DNA from: a virus
DNA: 53,037 nt
UHGV virus genome: UHGV-0150124
Direction: 5' to 3' (one strand)
Made by a program: the position numbers and the translations under genes. Below are positions 32,321 to 43,554 of this stretch, piece after piece (within the stretch, counting starts at the first letter, position 1; each line of letters begins with the position of its first letter). A model generated the notes under the pieces. The model saw only the letters and a list, made by a program, of their open reading frames with translations, did no database searches and was not told the origin of the DNA.

Positions 32321-32510
32321 CCTTCACCTCGCGACGATAGATTTCTACTGGCTTAACCGGAATAGCGTTAAAATCCCCTTCATCCAGTGCGGCAATAAAC
32401 GTTAGCGCCAACCGTGCTTCAACACCGCTTAAATACTTGCACCATGCCTCACCGTTATAATCTTCAAAAAGAATAACCGCTTTTTTCATGTTTATCTCTT
32501 GTTGTTTCAT
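32310..32510 (-). CDS. Hypothetical protein
   Basis: 66-aa ORF starting at the Q stop codon. Confidence 0.4.
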   Translation of the reverse strand: MKQQEINMKKAVILFEDYNGEAWCKYLSGVEARLALTFIAALDEGDFNAIPVKPVEIYRREVKDEA

Positions 32511-33232
32511 TATTCACCCCGTGTCACTCGTTTAATTTCGTTATCAGCCCGCGCCTCTTCTTTGAACAATTCAGTAATGGCGTCTTCATAGAAAGCACGG
32601 TATTTCTTCCACCACGTTGATCGGCTTACCGGAAATACAAGCTGATTAACCGCACGCCGGACAAGATCTACAGGGAAACGCGAGTACCCGCGCCCGCCGC
32701 AATGCTGGCACGTTTTGAACACTGGCATTTCCGCTGCTTCACTGGCTGCTTTATCCGGTATCTCGCCGCGCCCTTTGCATCGTTTACAATGATTACGAAC
32801 TTTTCCATGCCCCTTGCATTTTTTGCAAAGGTGTTTTTCTCCGTAGTCGTCAAACGTAAATTTATATCCGCCGCAATCCATACAAGTTTTTTCTGTCGCG
32901 GCACTCTGGCAGTAATCCCGAAACGCGAAAACGGCAACAAGAATAATAAGATCATTGCGTTTGTCCTCGTCCAGCTCTATGACGTATTCGTAATCTTTTG
33001 CCATAGCTCTTAAACGCTCTGTAAGCAAAACTACGGCCCTGTGTTTTTCGGCTTGCGATAGTTCCATCTTTCCCAAAAAAGCGCTATAGCCAAGCTCTAC
33101 GCGCGATTGCGCCATACCCGCAGCGGTTAGCGCATCCGTCGTATTAAGAGCGTCCGGGGACGTGCCCCGGCTTTCGTCAGATAATCGCGGTGATTTAGGA
33201 AAGTGGAATTTTAGAATGGATTCTAAATTCAT
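32510..33232 (-). CDS. Q: Late-gene antiterminator Q (lambda type)
   Basis: 240 aa; N-terminus MNLESILKFHFPKSP vs lambda Q MRLESVAKFHSPKSP; Cys-rich zinc-binding segment CMDCGG...CKRCKGRGE...CQHCGGRGYSRF. Confidence 0.85.
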   Translation of the reverse strand: MNLESILKFHFPKSPRLSDESRGTSPDALNTTDALTAAGMAQSRVELGYSAFLGKMELSQAEKHRAVVLLTERLRAMAKDYEYVIELDEDKRNDLIILVAVFAFRDYCQSAATEKTCMDCGGYKFTFDDYGEKHLCKKCKGHGKVRNHCKRCKGRGEIPDKAASEAAEMPVFKTCQHCGGRGYSRFPVDLVRRAVNQLVFPVSRSTWWKKYRAFYEDAITELFKEEARADNEIKRVTRGE

Positions 33233-34420: not shown

Positions 34421-34732
34421 AAAAACCACCCCGATTATTTTTGATTCTCTGTTTCGTTCAGCCTTTCGGCGTGTCCGGCCCTTAGCCAATGTTCTAAGCA
34501 TTCGTTGCACTCGTTACAGCCTCCTTTCTTCGTGCTGCATACATTGCACATTGCACGCATAACGCTTTCTCGTTCATAGTCGTCATGCCATTGGTAATCA
34601 TCAAAAGACATAATGCTCTCTCCTTTTCAGGTGATTTCTACGCATTTCAGCGCTGCCGGATTTTTAAAGAGCATTTTGTTTGCTTGAAGTATACAAAATG
34701 GATATGCCATAACAAGGTGAAAAGCGCCATTA

Positions 34733-34748
34733 TGTGATACGTATCACA
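34733..34748. promoter_or_regulatory. CRP-consensus palindrome TGTGATACGTATCACA
   Basis: Perfect TGTGA-N6-TCACA within a fully symmetric 14-bp palindrome, in the gap between methylase and ninG. Confidence 0.4.
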
Positions 34749-34770
34749 CAGTGACGCCATTTTGTAAACT

Positions 34771-35535
34771 TCAGTCCGGCAAAACACGGTTAAGCGTAGT
34801 CCGCGTGATGGCCCTGTCGTTAGCCAGGAATACAGCTCGTGCGAAGCCGCGCGGCGTTAGTGAGCGGATCATCTTAGTGCGCTTCGACTTTCCGCCTAAC
34901 TTCGCGTGCTGCTTACTGTCTTCCCATTCATCCGGCATTGGTACAGGCCGGAATAGCGGCTGCTTAAATCCATTACCACACCAAATACATGTTTTCTTCG
35001 TGTAGGCATCGCGGTCGGCAATGTATTCCGGGAAAGCAGGATGTTTGTCATCTTCAGGCAGGTAGCCACCGTAAACGCAAGGATTGAAGATAAAATCCGG
35101 TTTACGCCATAACGTTGACAGTGCGCCAACTGGATTTTCCACCATCCACGGCACGTTATACATATTCGCCAGTTTTTCTACAATTTTTGCGTTATACGCC
35201 GCCTTTACCTGGAAGCTAGGATCTTTTTTCCGTTTATCAGCGAACCAACGAGCGCCTGATACGGCAAGATCATCACACGGAGGAAAGCCCAAGATAATGT
35301 CAGGCTCTGGATAAACAGACAATTCAGGGGAGAACATTACCAGGAAATGGCTGTCAATCCATACGTTAACATATTCAATATTTGGATGAATTATTTTTAC
35401 CCCGTCATAATCCCCGTGATTAGCGCCGTCATAGTTGAAGCAATAGCATTTATAACCAGCTTCCGCCCAATCTTTAACGGCGTACCCGCTTCCGTCGTAC
35501 AGCGACCAGATAACCCAATTTCTAAGCCCGCTCAT
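34771..35535 (-). CDS. Putative DNA cytosine methyltransferase-like protein
   Basis: 254 aa; GFPPC (Pro-Cys) and MVENPVG (ENV-like) motifs; unusually short for a C5-MTase. Confidence 0.45.
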   Translation of the reverse strand: MSGLRNWVIWSLYDGSGYAVKDWAEAGYKCYCFNYDGANHGDYDGVKIIHPNIEYVNVWIDSHFLVMFSPELSVYPEPDIILGFPPCDDLAVSGARWFADKRKKDPSFQVKAAYNAKIVEKLANMYNVPWMVENPVGALSTLWRKPDFIFNPCVYGGYLPEDDKHPAFPEYIADRDAYTKKTCIWCGNGFKQPLFRPVPMPDEWEDSKQHAKLGGKSKRTKMIRSLTPRGFARAVFLANDRAITRTTLNRVLPD

Positions 35536-37355: not shown

Positions 37356-37545
37356 TTACCCCGCCTTTCACGCGCTCTTTAATATCCCATACGTGAGGCT
37401 TGCATATTTCTTGATAGTAGTGATCCAGCCTGCTGCCGAAATACCATTTGCCATCCATATAAAAATAAACGCCAGAAAAATTTCCTGGCGCTGCCTTTGT
37501 TGCTGCTTCTGGAATTTTCCATTCCATGTAATGTTTAAATTTCAT
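37342..37545 (-). CDS. Hypothetical protein
   Basis: 67-aa ORF. Confidence 0.35.
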   Translation of the reverse strand: MKFKHYMEWKIPEAATKAAPGNFSGVYFYMDGKWYFGSRLDHYYQEICKPHVWDIKERVKGGVIEDV

Positions 37546-40762: not shown

Positions 40763-41406
40763 TAACCCATCTCCCCGTTAAGCTCTGCGACCCGGATGTC
40801 ATAAACATCTTTTGCCTTGATTCGATGTTCCGATCCTTCCGGTAGTAATTTCCAGCATTTGCCAAATATTTCACGCAGCTTGTTAGCGTCCTGCGCTTTC
40901 GCTGCTGCATCACAGAAACGTGCTAATACTTCATCAGGATTTGGCGGCGCTTTCTTCTGCTGCGGTTGTTGTTTTGGTGGGTTTTTCTGTTGTCGCGGCT
41001 GCTGGCCTGTCTGCTTCGCGTAAGCATCAGTATCAGGATCGCGAGCATCATCTATACAGAATAAACCGTTCAAAGCATATTTACGCGCGTAACTTGATGT
41101 TGCTCCTGTTAGCTGGCTGGCGTCCATACCCTTCTTGTTTTCTTCCTCCCTGGCATAAGCAGTTACCGCTATTACGTCTTCACCGTCGCTTAGCGTCGCC
41201 GTTGCTTTCACATAATAGCGATTGCCGATCAGGACAATTTCATCACTAACAGTCAGCGTGATATTTTGAAGCAGTGGTTTAACCGCCTCTAAAATATCCT
41301 CCGCCGACCTGTAATTATATCCACCAAAATTATTACGCTGATTTTTCGGCGCGTTCAGCGTTTGCTGAATCGTCCATAGCTTTTTATGTAACTCTGTTTT
41401 CACCAT
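40762..41406 (-). CDS. erf: Erf-family single-strand annealing protein
   Basis: LNAPKNQRNNFGGYNYRSAEDILEAVKPLL...DEIVLIGNRYYVKATATLSDGE...AREEENKKGMDASQLTGATSSYARKYALNGLF matches P22 Erf by eye. Confidence 0.85.
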   Translation of the reverse strand: MVKTELHKKLWTIQQTLNAPKNQRNNFGGYNYRSAEDILEAVKPLLQNITLTVSDEIVLIGNRYYVKATATLSDGEDVIAVTAYAREEENKKGMDASQLTGATSSYARKYALNGLFCIDDARDPDTDAYAKQTGQQPRQQKNPPKQQPQQKKAPPNPDEVLARFCDAAAKAQDANKLREIFGKCWKLLPEGSEHRIKAKDVYDIRVAELNGEMG

Positions 41407-41552
41407 TTAATCTCCCGTGCTGTTAACACTATGTATAAGGCTTTATTCGCGGCGCTCCACATTTCGGCATCGTGAAGCATTTCCGCTACTGCCAGTTTGA
41501 ATTGAAGCGCCTGAATAACCATAATGTCACCTCCGGATGTTTACATTTTGTA

Positions 41553-41843
41553 TTAATGGTAGCGGACTTTATCCAGGGGTTTTTCCCCTAAATGGCGTGG
41601 TTGCGTTGCGTGGTAGTAGCTGCCGCTTTCATTTTCCGTATACCATTTTACTGATCCTTTGCGACGTTCTTTAATGCTATTTGGTTTGCATCTTTCCTCG
41701 TTTGCAAATCGAATAGCTTTATCCACATTGTCTGTTTTATTGATTGCAGGTGATGATTTTCTTTCGTTTTCTCTTTTTATCCTTCTGCGTTCCCTGGCAT
41801 TCATTTTGCTATCACATTTACCATATATAATTGTAACGCTCAT
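41553..41843 (-). CDS. N-like transcription antiterminator
   Basis: N-terminus MSVTIIYGK...NARERRRIKRENER is an arginine-rich motif resembling P22 gp24 / lambda N; first gene leftward of the repressor. Confidence 0.65.
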   Translation of the reverse strand: MSVTIIYGKCDSKMNARERRRIKRENERKSSPAINKTDNVDKAIRFANEERCKPNSIKERRKGSVKWYTENESGSYYHATQPRHLGEKPLDKVRYH

Positions 41844-41898
41844 AATCTGATCTCCGTATATCCTTGATGATACTTAATAAAAAATCATCTTCGTTAAT

Positions 41899-41938
41899 TG
41901 CCGCACTTCCAGCGGCTGACCAGATTGTTAATGAGCGG
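41899..41938 (-). promoter_or_regulatory. Candidate nutL (boxA CGCTCATTA plus boxB hairpin GCCGC-UGGAAGU-GCGGC)
   Basis: Read on minus strand 56-95 nt upstream of the N-like start. Confidence 0.4.
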
Positions 41939-42310
41939 CTTAACATCTTTCAACTAATCCCGCAATCATCGCCGTTCCCGGCGTGACCTTGCTCACTCCA
42001 AGCAAGCTGACTCGTCGCCTTGCGTGCGGTTTCGTGGGGGATGTAACGCTTTAAACACCCCATGCGCCTTGTTATCAGTGCCGCTTTCGGTCCCCCATCG
42101 GGGAGTTACTCCACGGTTGACAAGGTGTTAAGCCTGATTTTTAAAGTGCCAGGAAGTTGCTTTTGTTACCTGCGCCCTTCCTTTGACTCGCAATATACGC
42201 CCCGTAAAACATCGAGTCAATCCATTTTGTATACTTTTTTAAAATATTTTATATGCCATTGATATTTAAATAATAAATAACGTTTTCTGTTTACGTTTTG
42301 GTGTTTTCCA

Positions 42311-42337
42311 GGCAAAGAAAAGCCGCCATTCGGCGGC
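42311..42337 (-). terminator. Intrinsic terminator downstream of the repressor gene
   Basis: On minus strand: hairpin GCCGCC-GAAT-GGCGGC followed by TTTTCTTTG. Confidence 0.55.
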
Positions 42338-42343
42338 TAATGT

Positions 42344-42991
42344 TTATGGCAGGTTTACGATCTTCGCATCAACCACCACGCCTATAATTTTTGATTCTGG
42401 ATTCATAGGGATTGGCGGATACAGCGGATTGAGCGAACGTAAAAGCCTTTGACCTCCATCAATAATCAACTGTTTAAACGTCGGTATCTGCCCTTCCTCA
42501 AGCTGGGCTATAACCAGTTTGCCGTCAATAGCTGGCGCGTGCGGGTCCACAAGTATCATCGTCCCCGCCGGGATGCTCAACCCCTGCGGCGCGTTCATTG
42601 ATTCACCTTTGGCAACCAGCCAGTAACTGTCATCTGAACAAATAACGCTAGTCGTAACGTGTCGTAATGCTGAACGCCTTGCGTCATCCATATTGTTTAC
42701 TGTGTCCTTCCAGTCAATAACCGGGTAACTACCTAAATCACGCGGCGGCACGGCCTGAAGTGTATTAGAAACAGAATCATCAATGACCATGCCATCATGT
42801 GTAACAGTAAACTGCCGACGACCAAGCTCGCGCATAATCCGCGCAATATCTTCAAGATTTGGCTCTCGGCGACCGTTCAGCCAGTGTGACAGGCCGCCTT
42901 TAGTTATCCCCATACGATCCGCGAGCGAATCCTGGCTCATGCCCTGCGCCCGCATGAGCTGCTTTGCTAAGTCATACCATTTTGTTTTCAT
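42344..42991 (-). CDS. cI: cI-type repressor (HTH plus LexA/S24 autopeptidase domain)
   Basis: 215 aa; N-terminal HTH (QDSLADRMGITKGGLSHWLNG); C-terminal S24-like domain with GESM serine and downstream Lys. Confidence 0.85.
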   Translation of the reverse strand: MKTKWYDLAKQLMRAQGMSQDSLADRMGITKGGLSHWLNGRREPNLEDIARIMRELGRRQFTVTHDGMVIDDSVSNTLQAVPPRDLGSYPVIDWKDTVNNMDDARRSALRHVTTSVICSDDSYWLVAKGESMNAPQGLSIPAGTMILVDPHAPAIDGKLVIAQLEEGQIPTFKQLIIDGGQRLLRSLNPLYPPIPMNPESKIIGVVVDAKIVNLP

Positions 42992-43296
42992 GTCGCTACC
43001 CTATAACCTCAAAAAGTTTGATGCAAGTCACAAAACGTGTATTTTAAGCCTTGATCTTAAAATTCCATTTTGTAAACTTGCAGACAAGGTAAGGCCATAC
43101 TTGCAAAGACGCAAGGAAAAAGATAACGGAAGGCACAAAAAGGCACTTACCTTATGCTCTTTAAAAATCCGGTGTCGCTGCGAAGCGAAAAACAAATATC
43201 ACGCAACGGCGGGATCTGTTGAGCGGTCAGTCACTGCTATCTAATGCTAATGGGATGCCCGCCCGCGCGTTCACTCTAACCATAGGAGAAAATGCG
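42992..43296. promoter_or_regulatory. Immunity-region intergenic control region (candidate operators and rightward promoter)
   Basis: 305-bp gap with repeated CTTGCA / TGCAAG half-sites and palindrome CTTGCAAAGACGCAAG; no Cro-like ORF found. Confidence 0.4.
43153..43190 (+). promoter_or_regulatory. Candidate nutR (boxA-like TGCTCTTTAA plus boxB-like CGCU-GCGA-AGCG)
   Basis: Resembles the nutL candidate (CGCUG.GAAG core). Confidence 0.35.
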
Positions 43297-43554
43297 ATGA
43301 GTATAAACATGATTAGTAAAGCATGGAACGTAAAACTTAATAGCCCGACTCAAAAACTTGTCTTAATGGCTCTGGCTGAAAAGGCAGATAACAAAGGACG
43401 GGTACATGATGCATCACGCAAAGAAGTAGCCGCAATGTGTGAACTTCCTGTTCATACGGTACATGATGCCTTCGCCGCGTTAATGGATAAAGGATTTGTT
43501 TGTCGTCTTGATGCATTCAGTGATGTCTATGTAGTGATGTTGCCGGAGGGATGA
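43297..43554 (+). CDS. Winged-helix DNA-binding protein, first gene of the rightward operon
   Basis: Start at MSINMISKAWN after AGGAG; KLVLMALAEKADNKGRV...EVAAMCELPVHTVHDAFAALMDKGFV. Confidence 0.45.
   Translation: MSINMISKAWNVKLNSPTQKLVLMALAEKADNKGRVHDASRKEVAAMCELPVHTVHDAFAALMDKGFVCRLDAFSDVYVVMLPEG

Follow-up and report, generated by a model that had tools for sequence, protein, structure and literature searches.

Whether the first gene leftward of the immunity repressor encodes an N-type antiterminator, and whether the early transcripts carry the RNA sites through which such a protein would act, is the question raised by this locus of the window, that is, the whole 53,037-nucleotide stretch of viral DNA analysed here. 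An earlier note had proposed a P22-N-like protein with one nutL and one nutR site. The window very probably stems from a member of the mEp immunity-I group, an E. coli phage or prophage, whose ORF at 41553..41843 (-) specifies an ortholog of mEp021 Gp17, a processive antiterminator of the N type. The gene itself, its family membership, three nut sites, covariation in the boxB stems, a Q gene and synteny with mEp021 are all observed in the window. The region around the gene contains the following features:

41553..41843 (-): N-like antiterminator gene, 96 aa, very probable ortholog of mEp021 gp17 (ORF, PHROG 271, family alignment)
41852..41855 (-): ribosome-binding site GGAG, 8 nt 5' of the ATG, read off the sequence
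42192..42220 (-): candidate promoter of the N operon, TTGACT-17-TATATT, predicted from sequence, both hexamers conserved in all relatives
42321..42338 (-): intrinsic terminator of the repressor gene, from sequence, annotated as a terminator in mEp phages
42344..42991 (-): CI-like repressor with HTH and S24 peptidase domains (Pfam PF01381 and PF00717)

No other ORF lies between the candidate promoter and the gene, which is 500 bp from the repressor stop codon and opens the early operon that adjoins the repressor; its GGAG ribosome-binding site is kept in seven of seven aligned phages. The product is a small basic protein beginning MSVTIIYGKCDSKMNARERRRIKRENERK, in which the arginine-rich motif spans N15–K29 (NARERRRIKRENERK) near the N-terminus. 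When the family is aligned with P22 gp24, N15, A16, R20 and R24 never vary, and conservation of R17 and R19 reaches 90% or more. The protein matches PHROG 271 (E=1.3e-13), which is also matched by P22 gp24 (6.9e-40) and lambda N (4.1e-23), and these sequence comparisons support its placement among the N-family antiterminators. Direct similarity to known N proteins is weak: with P22 gp24, BLASTP aligns 20 residues at E=0.017 and hhalign gives E=0.0029 with a probability of just 10.6%, and Pfam N_peptide (PF25694) scores 15.9 bits, below its cutoff of 27.9. A search of NCBIfam returned no match, PDB sequences yielded no N or Nun peptides, and tblastn against 50,697 phage records retrieved the mEp group only, without reaching P22, lambda or HK022. 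The motif had earlier been described as very like that of P22 gp24; this holds for the N-terminal half, where motifs common to both proteins and the PHROG 271 match make the resemblance weak but real, and does not extend to the C-terminal half, which is family-specific.

At the level of the whole protein, identity to mEp021 Gp17 is 92.7%, residues 15–29 are the same in both, and R17, R19, R20 and R24 are all present. The gene is 100% identical at the protein level to a MagusPhagus gene annotated "anti-termination protein N-like" and recurs unchanged in prophages of about ten complete E. coli genomes, while the DNA of 41400..43400 is 91–93% identical to that of six mEp phages. The mEp021 Gp17 system is reportedly the subject of Valencia-Toxqui et al. 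2023 (Arch Virol 168:92), and Gp17 is said to have been named 'N-lambda-like' in published work. Gp17 is reported to be an experimentally characterized, N-like early antiterminator that uses nutR1 5' of gp17, nutL beside the repressor and nutR2 3' of a cytosine methyltransferase gene (PMC11893012). The same study describes the conservation of R17, R19, R20 and R24, reports Nus dependence for the mEp group and documents group-wide conservation of the system (PMC11893012). The window thus shares with the mEp immunity-I Gp17 orthologs the identity, the four arginines, the synteny and the positions of all three nut sites, which are as follows:

41892..41937 (-): nut site A, published nutR1 by position (pattern, covariance model 52 bits, folding, conservation)
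43155..43197 (+): nut site B, published nutL by position (pattern, covariance model 60.5 bits, folding, conservation)
34631..34673 (-): nut site C, published nutR2 by position (pattern, covariance model 53.9 bits, folding, conservation)

The correspondence of sites A, C and B with nutR1, nutR2 and nutL was drawn from where the sites lie and how PMC11893012 describes them, not from their sequence, the supplements of that paper giving no nut sequences. In site A, boxA (41928..41937 (-), CGCTCATTAA) is followed by a boxB hairpin at 41900..41916 (-), GCCGC / U-GGAAG-U / GCGGC; in site B, boxA (43155..43164 (+), TGCTCTTTAA) is followed by one at 43175..43188 (+), UCGC / U-GCGA-A / GCGA, and the distance from boxA to hairpin is 10–11 nt at both. 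Site C, which lies 3' of the methyltransferase gene, combines a boxA at 34664..34673 (-) with a hairpin at 34640..34653 (-), GCGC / U-GAAA-U / GCGU. All three are in sense orientation in early transcripts. The loops are GNRA-like (GAAA, GCGA and GGAAG), flanked by U on one side and U or A on the other, and two of them are true tetraloops, unlike the pentaloops of lambda and P22.

Several lines of evidence converge on these sites. The pattern GCTCWTTAA-N9-13-CGCTG-N3-4-WGCG occurs three times in the window as against 0 in 100 shuffles, and a covariance model, whose training alignment included the three sites, scores them at 52–60 bits compared with 11 bits for the next best; the same search found no fourth full nut site in the window. 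An exact boxA match at 37373 (+) was rejected, since the operon runs on the opposite strand and no hairpin lies 3' of the boxA. Folding of the boxB hairpins yields -5.5 to -10.1 kcal/mol, comparable to authentic P22 and lambda boxB (-6.9 to -9.4 kcal/mol). Across relatives, 97.5% of the boxB stem cells are paired, as opposed to 78.6% in shuffles and 18–61% in slid controls, and compensatory changes affect three of five stem pairs, the stems seen being GCCGC/GCGGC, GCAC/GUGC, GCUC/GAGC, UCGC/GCGA, GCUAC/GUAGC and CCGC/GCGG. Such covariation across divergent relatives is what the present analysis adds to the boxB hairpins. Conservation and covariation together support both of the sites proposed in the earlier note, which had placed boxA and boxB elements at 41899..41938 (-) and 43153..43190; the elements indeed fall within these intervals, and the two boxB hairpins resemble each other as stated, both containing CGCUG..A.GCG. 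The pair was incomplete, since a third site at 34631..34673 (-) had been missed, and its naming has to be adapted to the published mEp021 map, in which the site adjoining N is nutR1 and that on the replication side is nutL.

The layout of the transcription units in which these sites lie is outlined by four further features:

43051..43078 (+): candidate promoter of the replication-side operon, TTGATC-16-TAAACT, predicted, hexamers conserved and spacer variable in 10 relatives
34688..34715 (-): promoter-like site TTGTTA-16-TATACT directly 5' of nut site C, predicted, hexamers conserved and spacer variable
37468..37492 (-): intrinsic-terminator-like hairpin, the strongest inside the N operon, between nut sites A and C, with an 11-bp stem and a U tract after it
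32510..33232 (-): Q-family late antiterminator gene (Pfam PF03589, E=2.3e-30)

The terminator at 42321..42338 (-) insulates the N-operon promoter from the repressor transcript, and the hairpin at 37468..37492 (-) corresponds to a terminator annotated in mEp phages; which terminators are overridden is a prediction. The Q gene is oriented like the N-like gene and belongs to its operon, in which it follows about 8 kb further downstream. Two-tier antitermination by an N-like protein and Q, as already suggested in the earlier note, is therefore supported by the confirmed Q gene, in an arrangement that differs from that of lambda.

Nut site C lies about 15 nt downstream of the promoter-like site 34688..34715 (-). 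A 13-nt motif, CCATTTTGTAWAC, lies in the -10 region of this promoter-like site and also occurs in the replication-side promoter, and CCATTTTGTAWACTT is common to the promoter-like site and the promoter 5' of site B. The 13-nt motif has 11 occurrences across the phage genome, mostly just 5' of genes. Its interpretation as an extended -10 element or as a TyrR or IHF site was discarded on inspection by eye, as the spacing and half-sites do not fit.

The leader of the N operon contains an additional element:

41938..42151 (-): 214-nt GC-rich structured insert in the N leader (relatives' alignment, folding)

The insert opens with an orphan boxA-like sequence, GGCACTTTAAAAATCAGG (42133..42150), without a boxB, so that boxA is duplicated at the insert bounds. 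It folds as a closed multi-stem domain in which one hairpin shows compensatory changes, is missing from about half of the relatives (including mEp044, mEp013, mEp554, L009, L010 and L018) and carries an internal 109-nt deletion in L013. An Rfam scan of 41400..43400 at E<=1 returned two chance-level matches, none of them at the nut sites or the insert. A MITE or repeat element was dismissed, the insert being present as a single copy per genome and, among 5426 E. coli genomes, in 31. The reading as a protein gene (called 'gp16' in mEp021) was likewise rejected: the ORF is not called by RefSeq, six of 11 codons in the variant region are non-synonymous while the RNA hairpin is kept, and most of the insert is deleted in L013.

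It is tentatively conceivable that the early circuit comprises three N-modified transcription units, not two, that CCATTTTGTAWAC marks promoters or operators under one regulator throughout the phage, and that the leader insert modulates the synthesis or loading of N. The insert, the promoter-like site at nut C and the 13-nt motif are apparently unpublished, as far as checked, and each of the three is a lead on the regulatory architecture, the promoter-like site as a possible third promoter.

The insert also bears on a different assignment of the leftward site, in which the orphan boxA at 42133..42150 and the 214-nt RNA would form the true N-utilisation element, either as a large substitute for boxB or as a put-like cis-acting RNA, and site A would be secondary. 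Of its 18 positions, the orphan boxA has 14 in common with the boxA-plus-spacer sequence of sites B and C, and the closed fold with its compensatory hairpin is what such an element might display. However, the relatives without the insert (mEp044, mEp013, mEp554, L009, L010 and L018) keep site A right after the promoter, site A is conserved or covarying in every relative, the 109-nt deletion within the insert of L013 counts against it, and the insert has no Rfam match. This assignment is consequently regarded as improbable, and site A is retained as the leftward nut site.

The activity of the protein could, in turn, be that of a Nun-like exclusion factor, which arrests the transcription of a competing phage at boxB instead of helping polymerase past terminators in its own genome. 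On lambda templates Nun acts as a terminator of transcription, and in HK022 the place of nut sites is taken by put RNAs. Nun, N and the window protein share their map position, and alignments of the arginine-rich motif with Nun (BLASTP E=0.006, hhalign E=0.018) are about as good as those with gp24. Nevertheless, the protein belongs to the N PHROG 271 and not to the Nun PHROG 5632, to which it has no match at E<=0.01, and it ends in ...PLDKVRYH, lacking the Trp-containing RNAP/DNA-contact tail of Nun, which ends in ...KKWS (...NPNKKWS). In its own genome, promoters are followed by three correctly oriented cognate boxA/boxB sites, and the mEp021 ortholog Gp17 is reported to antiterminate (PMC11893012). 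A Nun-like role is therefore very improbable. Still further from the evidence is the view that the boxA/boxB matches arose by chance or belong to a functionless conserved leader, and that the ORF encodes an unrelated small basic protein. Single-hairpin z-scores are modest, and the flanking intergenic regions are about 90% conserved, so that conservation alone proves little; yet the composite pattern is confined to the window rather than its 100 shuffles, three of five stem pairs change in a compensatory manner, the three sites share one architecture in the correct transcriptional orientation, and the N-family PHROG match is joined by published experiments on the ortholog. We consider this view exceedingly improbable.

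In the mechanism we propose, lifting of the CI-like repressor would allow leftward initiation near 42192..42220 and rightward initiation near 43051..43078, both at predicted promoters. Each early transcript would soon carry a nut site, in which boxA (YGCUCWUUAA) precedes a boxB hairpin with a GC-rich stem of 4–5 bp, a closing C-G pair, a U, a GNRA-type loop (GAAA, GCGA or GGAAG) and a U or A. The arginine-rich motif would contact boxB, host Nus factors would contact boxA and the protein, and the complex would ride on RNA polymerase, leading to read-through of terminators in both early operons. Site C, 7 kb along the leftward operon and just before ninG, rusA and Q, may reload the factor or load transcripts from a local promoter, and Q would then turn on late transcription. 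That Gp17 antiterminates, acts through three nut sites and depends on Nus factors is drawn from the literature and would apply here by analogy. For the mEp group, publications already cover the antiterminator with its arginine-rich motif as well as the three nut sites, and the gene is identical to database entries already labelled N-like; the identification of these elements in the window adds little.

Among known systems, HK022 Nun occupies the same map position as the window protein and has an arginine-rich motif of similar composition, although it belongs to PHROG 5632 (9.5e-69) and the window protein to PHROG 271. Lambda N falls in the same PHROG and follows the same logic of boxA and a boxB with a GNRA-type loop, then Q. 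No significant pairwise similarity exists between lambda N and the window protein, whose sole lambda-like element in the C-terminal half is a short RK....WY motif. The window differs from lambda in its two true tetraloops, its third nut site and its operon layout, with Q in the N-like operon and not on the opposite arm. The natural use of U-flanked GNRA tetraloops as boxB by the mEp group could interest those who study recognition between arginine-rich motifs and boxB.

P22 gp24, a PHROG 271 member as is the window protein, shares with it the N-terminus M-x-V-x-I-x-Y-G-K, the arginine-rich motif NA(R/K)xRRxxxR in the same register and a D-x-V-x-K-A-I-x-x-A motif. The boxA of P22 is CGCTCTTTAA-like, as in the window, and its nutR resembles site A in its 5-bp stem, mismatch-closed pentaloop and similar boxA spacer CAATCTG. 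In contrast, overall identity to gp24 is about 28–35% and limited to the N-terminal half, the Pfam N_peptide cutoff is not reached, and the C-terminal 45 residues are unrelated, the C-terminal half of the window protein being specific to its own family. P22 has GACAA boxB loops where the window has GAAA, GCGA or GGAAG, and two nut sites where the window has three; moreover, the window has Q in the N operon and no cro between the repressor and the replication genes. The window and mEp021 agree in gene order (repressor, N-like gene, kil, erf, ssb ... methyltransferase, nut, ninG, rusA, Q) and in the boxB sequence at all three sites. The two proteins are separated by seven amino-acid substitutions, all outside the arginine-rich motif, and the boxA of site B reads AGCTC in mEp021 and TGCTC in the window; otherwise, the system is the same.

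The antiterminator system found in the window has been described before, in mEp021 and its group. Six Mexican E. coli phages (mEp021, mEp010, mEp013, mEp044, mEp515, and mEp554) show 91–93% identity to the window over 41400..43400, and the N-like ORF is 92.7% identical to mEp021_17. The same ORF is 100% identical to a MagusPhagus gene labelled "anti-termination protein N-like protein", and its DNA is 100% identical in prophages of about ten complete E. coli genomes; RefSeq labels it hypothetical there. According to PMC11893012 (citing Valencia-Toxqui et al. 2023), mEp021 Gp17 is the N-lambda-like protein behind early antitermination and targets three nut sites: nutR1 precedes gp17, nutL adjoins the repressor gene, and nutR2 follows a cytosine methyltransferase gene. 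In that paper, R17, R19, R20, and R24 are conserved across all 48 group genomes, nutR1 varies most among the group nut sites, nutL and nutR2 are most alike, and host Nus factors are required by mEp-group phages. By position and by this variability pattern, nut sites A, B, and C of the window correspond to nutR1, nutL, and nutR2, respectively.

41553..41843, minus strand: N-like ORF, 96 aa, N-terminus MSVTIIYGKCDSKMNARERRRIKRENERK; ribosome-binding site GGAG 8 nt upstream of its ATG
42344..42991, minus strand: CI-like repressor gene, HTH_3 and Peptidase_S24 domains
41892..41937, minus strand: site A, CGCUCAUUAA CAAUCUGG UCA GCCGC-U-GGAAG-U-GCGGC
43155..43197, plus strand: site B, UGCUCUUUAA AAAUCCGG UG UCGC-U-GCGA-A-GCGA
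34631..34673, minus strand: site C, UGCUCUUUAA AAAUCCGG CA GCGC-U-GAAA-U-GCGU
32510..33232, minus strand: Q-family gene, PF03589, E=2.3e-30

A 500-bp non-coding stretch separates the N-like ORF from the repressor gene on its right, and kil-like, erf, and ssb genes are its left-hand neighbours. The 40-aa ORF immediately after it (41400..41522, minus strand) is kept in all relatives and matches lambda Kil weakly (Pfam PF06301, E=2.2e-4, below cutoff). Beyond the repressor lies a 305-bp intergenic region (42992..43296) followed by rightward replication genes; no cro-like ORF was found there, and the first rightward gene encodes an HTH protein akin to replication initiators. Candidate repressor operators in this intergenic region are the palindrome CTTGCA-N4-TGCAAG (about 43103..43118) and half-sites related to it. 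Just upstream of site C is a gene (34771..35535, minus strand) in the position that the cytosine methyltransferase gene has in mEp021, with ninG, rusA, and Q downstream.

The earlier note had placed boxA/boxB candidates at 41899..41938 (minus strand) and 43153..43190, and both sit exactly there; site C is added here. The boxA consensus YGCTCWTTAA has four exact matches, three of which are sense-oriented in early transcripts with a hairpin 10–11 nt downstream. The boxA/boxB composite pattern occurs three times, against none in 100 shuffles, and a covariance model trained on 18 distinct nut sequences, the window's own three sites among them, scores sites A–C at 52–60 bits and the next best match in the window at 11 bits. 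Intrinsic-terminator-like hairpins are predicted downstream of every nut site, e.g., at 37468..37492 (minus strand). Folded in isolation, the boxB hairpins have energies of -5.5 to -10.1 kcal/mol, comparable to the -6.9 to -9.4 kcal/mol of genuine P22 and lambda boxB; the z-scores of the window hairpins in longer contexts are only -0.6 to -1.5, and folding energy by itself is weak evidence for them.

Divergent relatives (with labels such as L009) were fetched via the N-like protein and from E. coli genomes to assess covariation. The window and the mEp phages have GCCGC/GCGGC as the site A stem; it is GCUAC/GUAGC in L011–L013, L016, and L017, and GCAC/GUGC, GCUC/GAGC, and UCGC/GCGA in L009, L014, and L010, respectively; the site C stem is GCGC/GCGU or CCGC/GCGG, and the C-U-GNRA-(U/A)-G motif is constant while the stems vary. 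Compensatory changes occur in three of the five stem pairs, and 97.5% of the cells in the stem alignment are paired, versus 78.6% when shuffled and 18–61% with the 3' partner slid. In site B of mEp515, the closing A is replaced by U, yielding the U..U flank of sites A and C. This covariation is decisive evidence that the boxB hairpin is real, and together with the shuffles it excludes that the nut matches arise by chance.

The N leader carries a 214-nt GC-rich insert (41938..42151, minus strand) between the promoter and site A. It starts with a boxA-like GGCACTTTAAAAATCAGG (an orphan, 42133..42150) and stops immediately ahead of the true boxA; thus, boxA appears duplicated around it. The insert ends pair with each other, RNAalifold predicts 58 pairs for the insert, and one hairpin stays paired via three compensatory changes between two lineages. 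The orphan boxA with this structured insert might be taken for the primary nut, but it is rejected as such because about half of the relatives lack the insert: it is present in the window, mEp021, mEp515, mEp010, L011, L012, L016, and L017, and absent from mEp044, mEp013, mEp554, L009, L010, and L018. The L013 insert has an internal 109-nt deletion. There is one copy per genome, without an Rfam match or an internal terminator-like site, and the 'gp16' ORF annotated within it in mEp021 looks spurious. As for the protein, pairwise BLASTP matches it to the Nun arginine-rich motif (E=0.006) and, over the N-terminal 20 residues, to P22 gp24 (E=0.017), with no match to lambda N. A Nun-like exclusion factor is nevertheless unlikely, since the protein matches PHROG 271, "anti-termination protein N-like" (E=1.3e-13; also matched by gp24, 6.9e-40, and lambda N, 4.1e-23), and HK022 Nun matches PHROG 5632; moreover, the protein lacks the Nun C-terminus, its own genome carries cognate nut sites, and PMC11893012 reports antitermination activity for the ortholog mEp021 Gp17. 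The nut/antiterminator observation is confirmed, and its interpretation is supported with corrections.

42192..42220, minus strand: leftward-operon promoter-like site TTGACT-17-TATATT, conserved
42321..42338: the repressor's own terminator, upstream of the leftward-operon promoter-like site
43051..43078: rightward-operon promoter-like site TTGATC-16-TAAACT, hexamers conserved, spacer variable
34688..34715, minus strand: promoter-like TTGTTA-16-TATACT about 15 nt upstream of site C, hexamers conserved and spacer variable across relatives
2394, 9816, 11603, 11994, 14584, 29280, 34689, 34757, 42222, 43065, 47331: copies of CCATTTTGTAWAC

The predicted promoter just upstream of site C suggests that this site may serve its own transcription unit. 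Allowing at most one mismatch, the window contains 11 copies of the repeated motif CCATTTTGTAWAC, versus 0.23 expected, mostly in intergenic positions 17–110 nt upstream of a same-strand ORF, and some copies are paired with an inverted copy 17–55 nt upstream. It overlaps the -10 region of the site C promoter-like element and of the rightward promoter candidate; at the leftward one it is inverted and directly adjoins the -35. It could serve as a promoter element or as an operator for some regulator. PMC11893012 defines neither promoters nor operators. A palindrome GTGAT-N5-ATCAC (34724..34757, minus strand), with conserved arms, a variable centre, and flanking direct AATGGCG repeats, lies between the methyltransferase gene and site C; it is annotated in mEp021 as the predicted terminator TERM_4 but has more the look of a protein-binding site. 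The leader insert, the site C promoter-like element, and the repeated motif are modest leads.

The Q-family gene shares the orientation of the N-like gene and lies downstream, 8 kb from that gene and 1.4 kb from site C. With this gene present, the two-tier antitermination proposed earlier is supported; N and Q share one operon here, a layout unlike that of lambda. The description "P22-N-like" is fair for the N-terminal half only, to which the likeness is confined: gp24 shares the motifs M-x-V-x-I-x-Y-G-K and D-x-V-x-K-A-I-x-x-A, as well as NA(R/K)xRRxxxR, which is in register. With a 16-member family profile, the best alignment is to gp24 (46 columns, residues 3-48, 39% identity, E=0.0029, probability only 10.6%), and Pfam N_peptide gives 15.9 bits, below the 27.9 cutoff, versus 152 bits for gp24. 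The C-terminal half (KWY.ENESGNY.HATQPR.LGEKPLDKVRYH) is unrelated to gp24, resembles lambda N only in a short RK....WY motif, and is near-invariant inside its small family, whose 31 clusters (at 90% identity) include members as little as 60% identical to the window protein. At the RNA level, site A and P22 nutR (ACCGC-C-GACAA-C-GCGGU) share their geometry and the boxA spacer CAATCTG.
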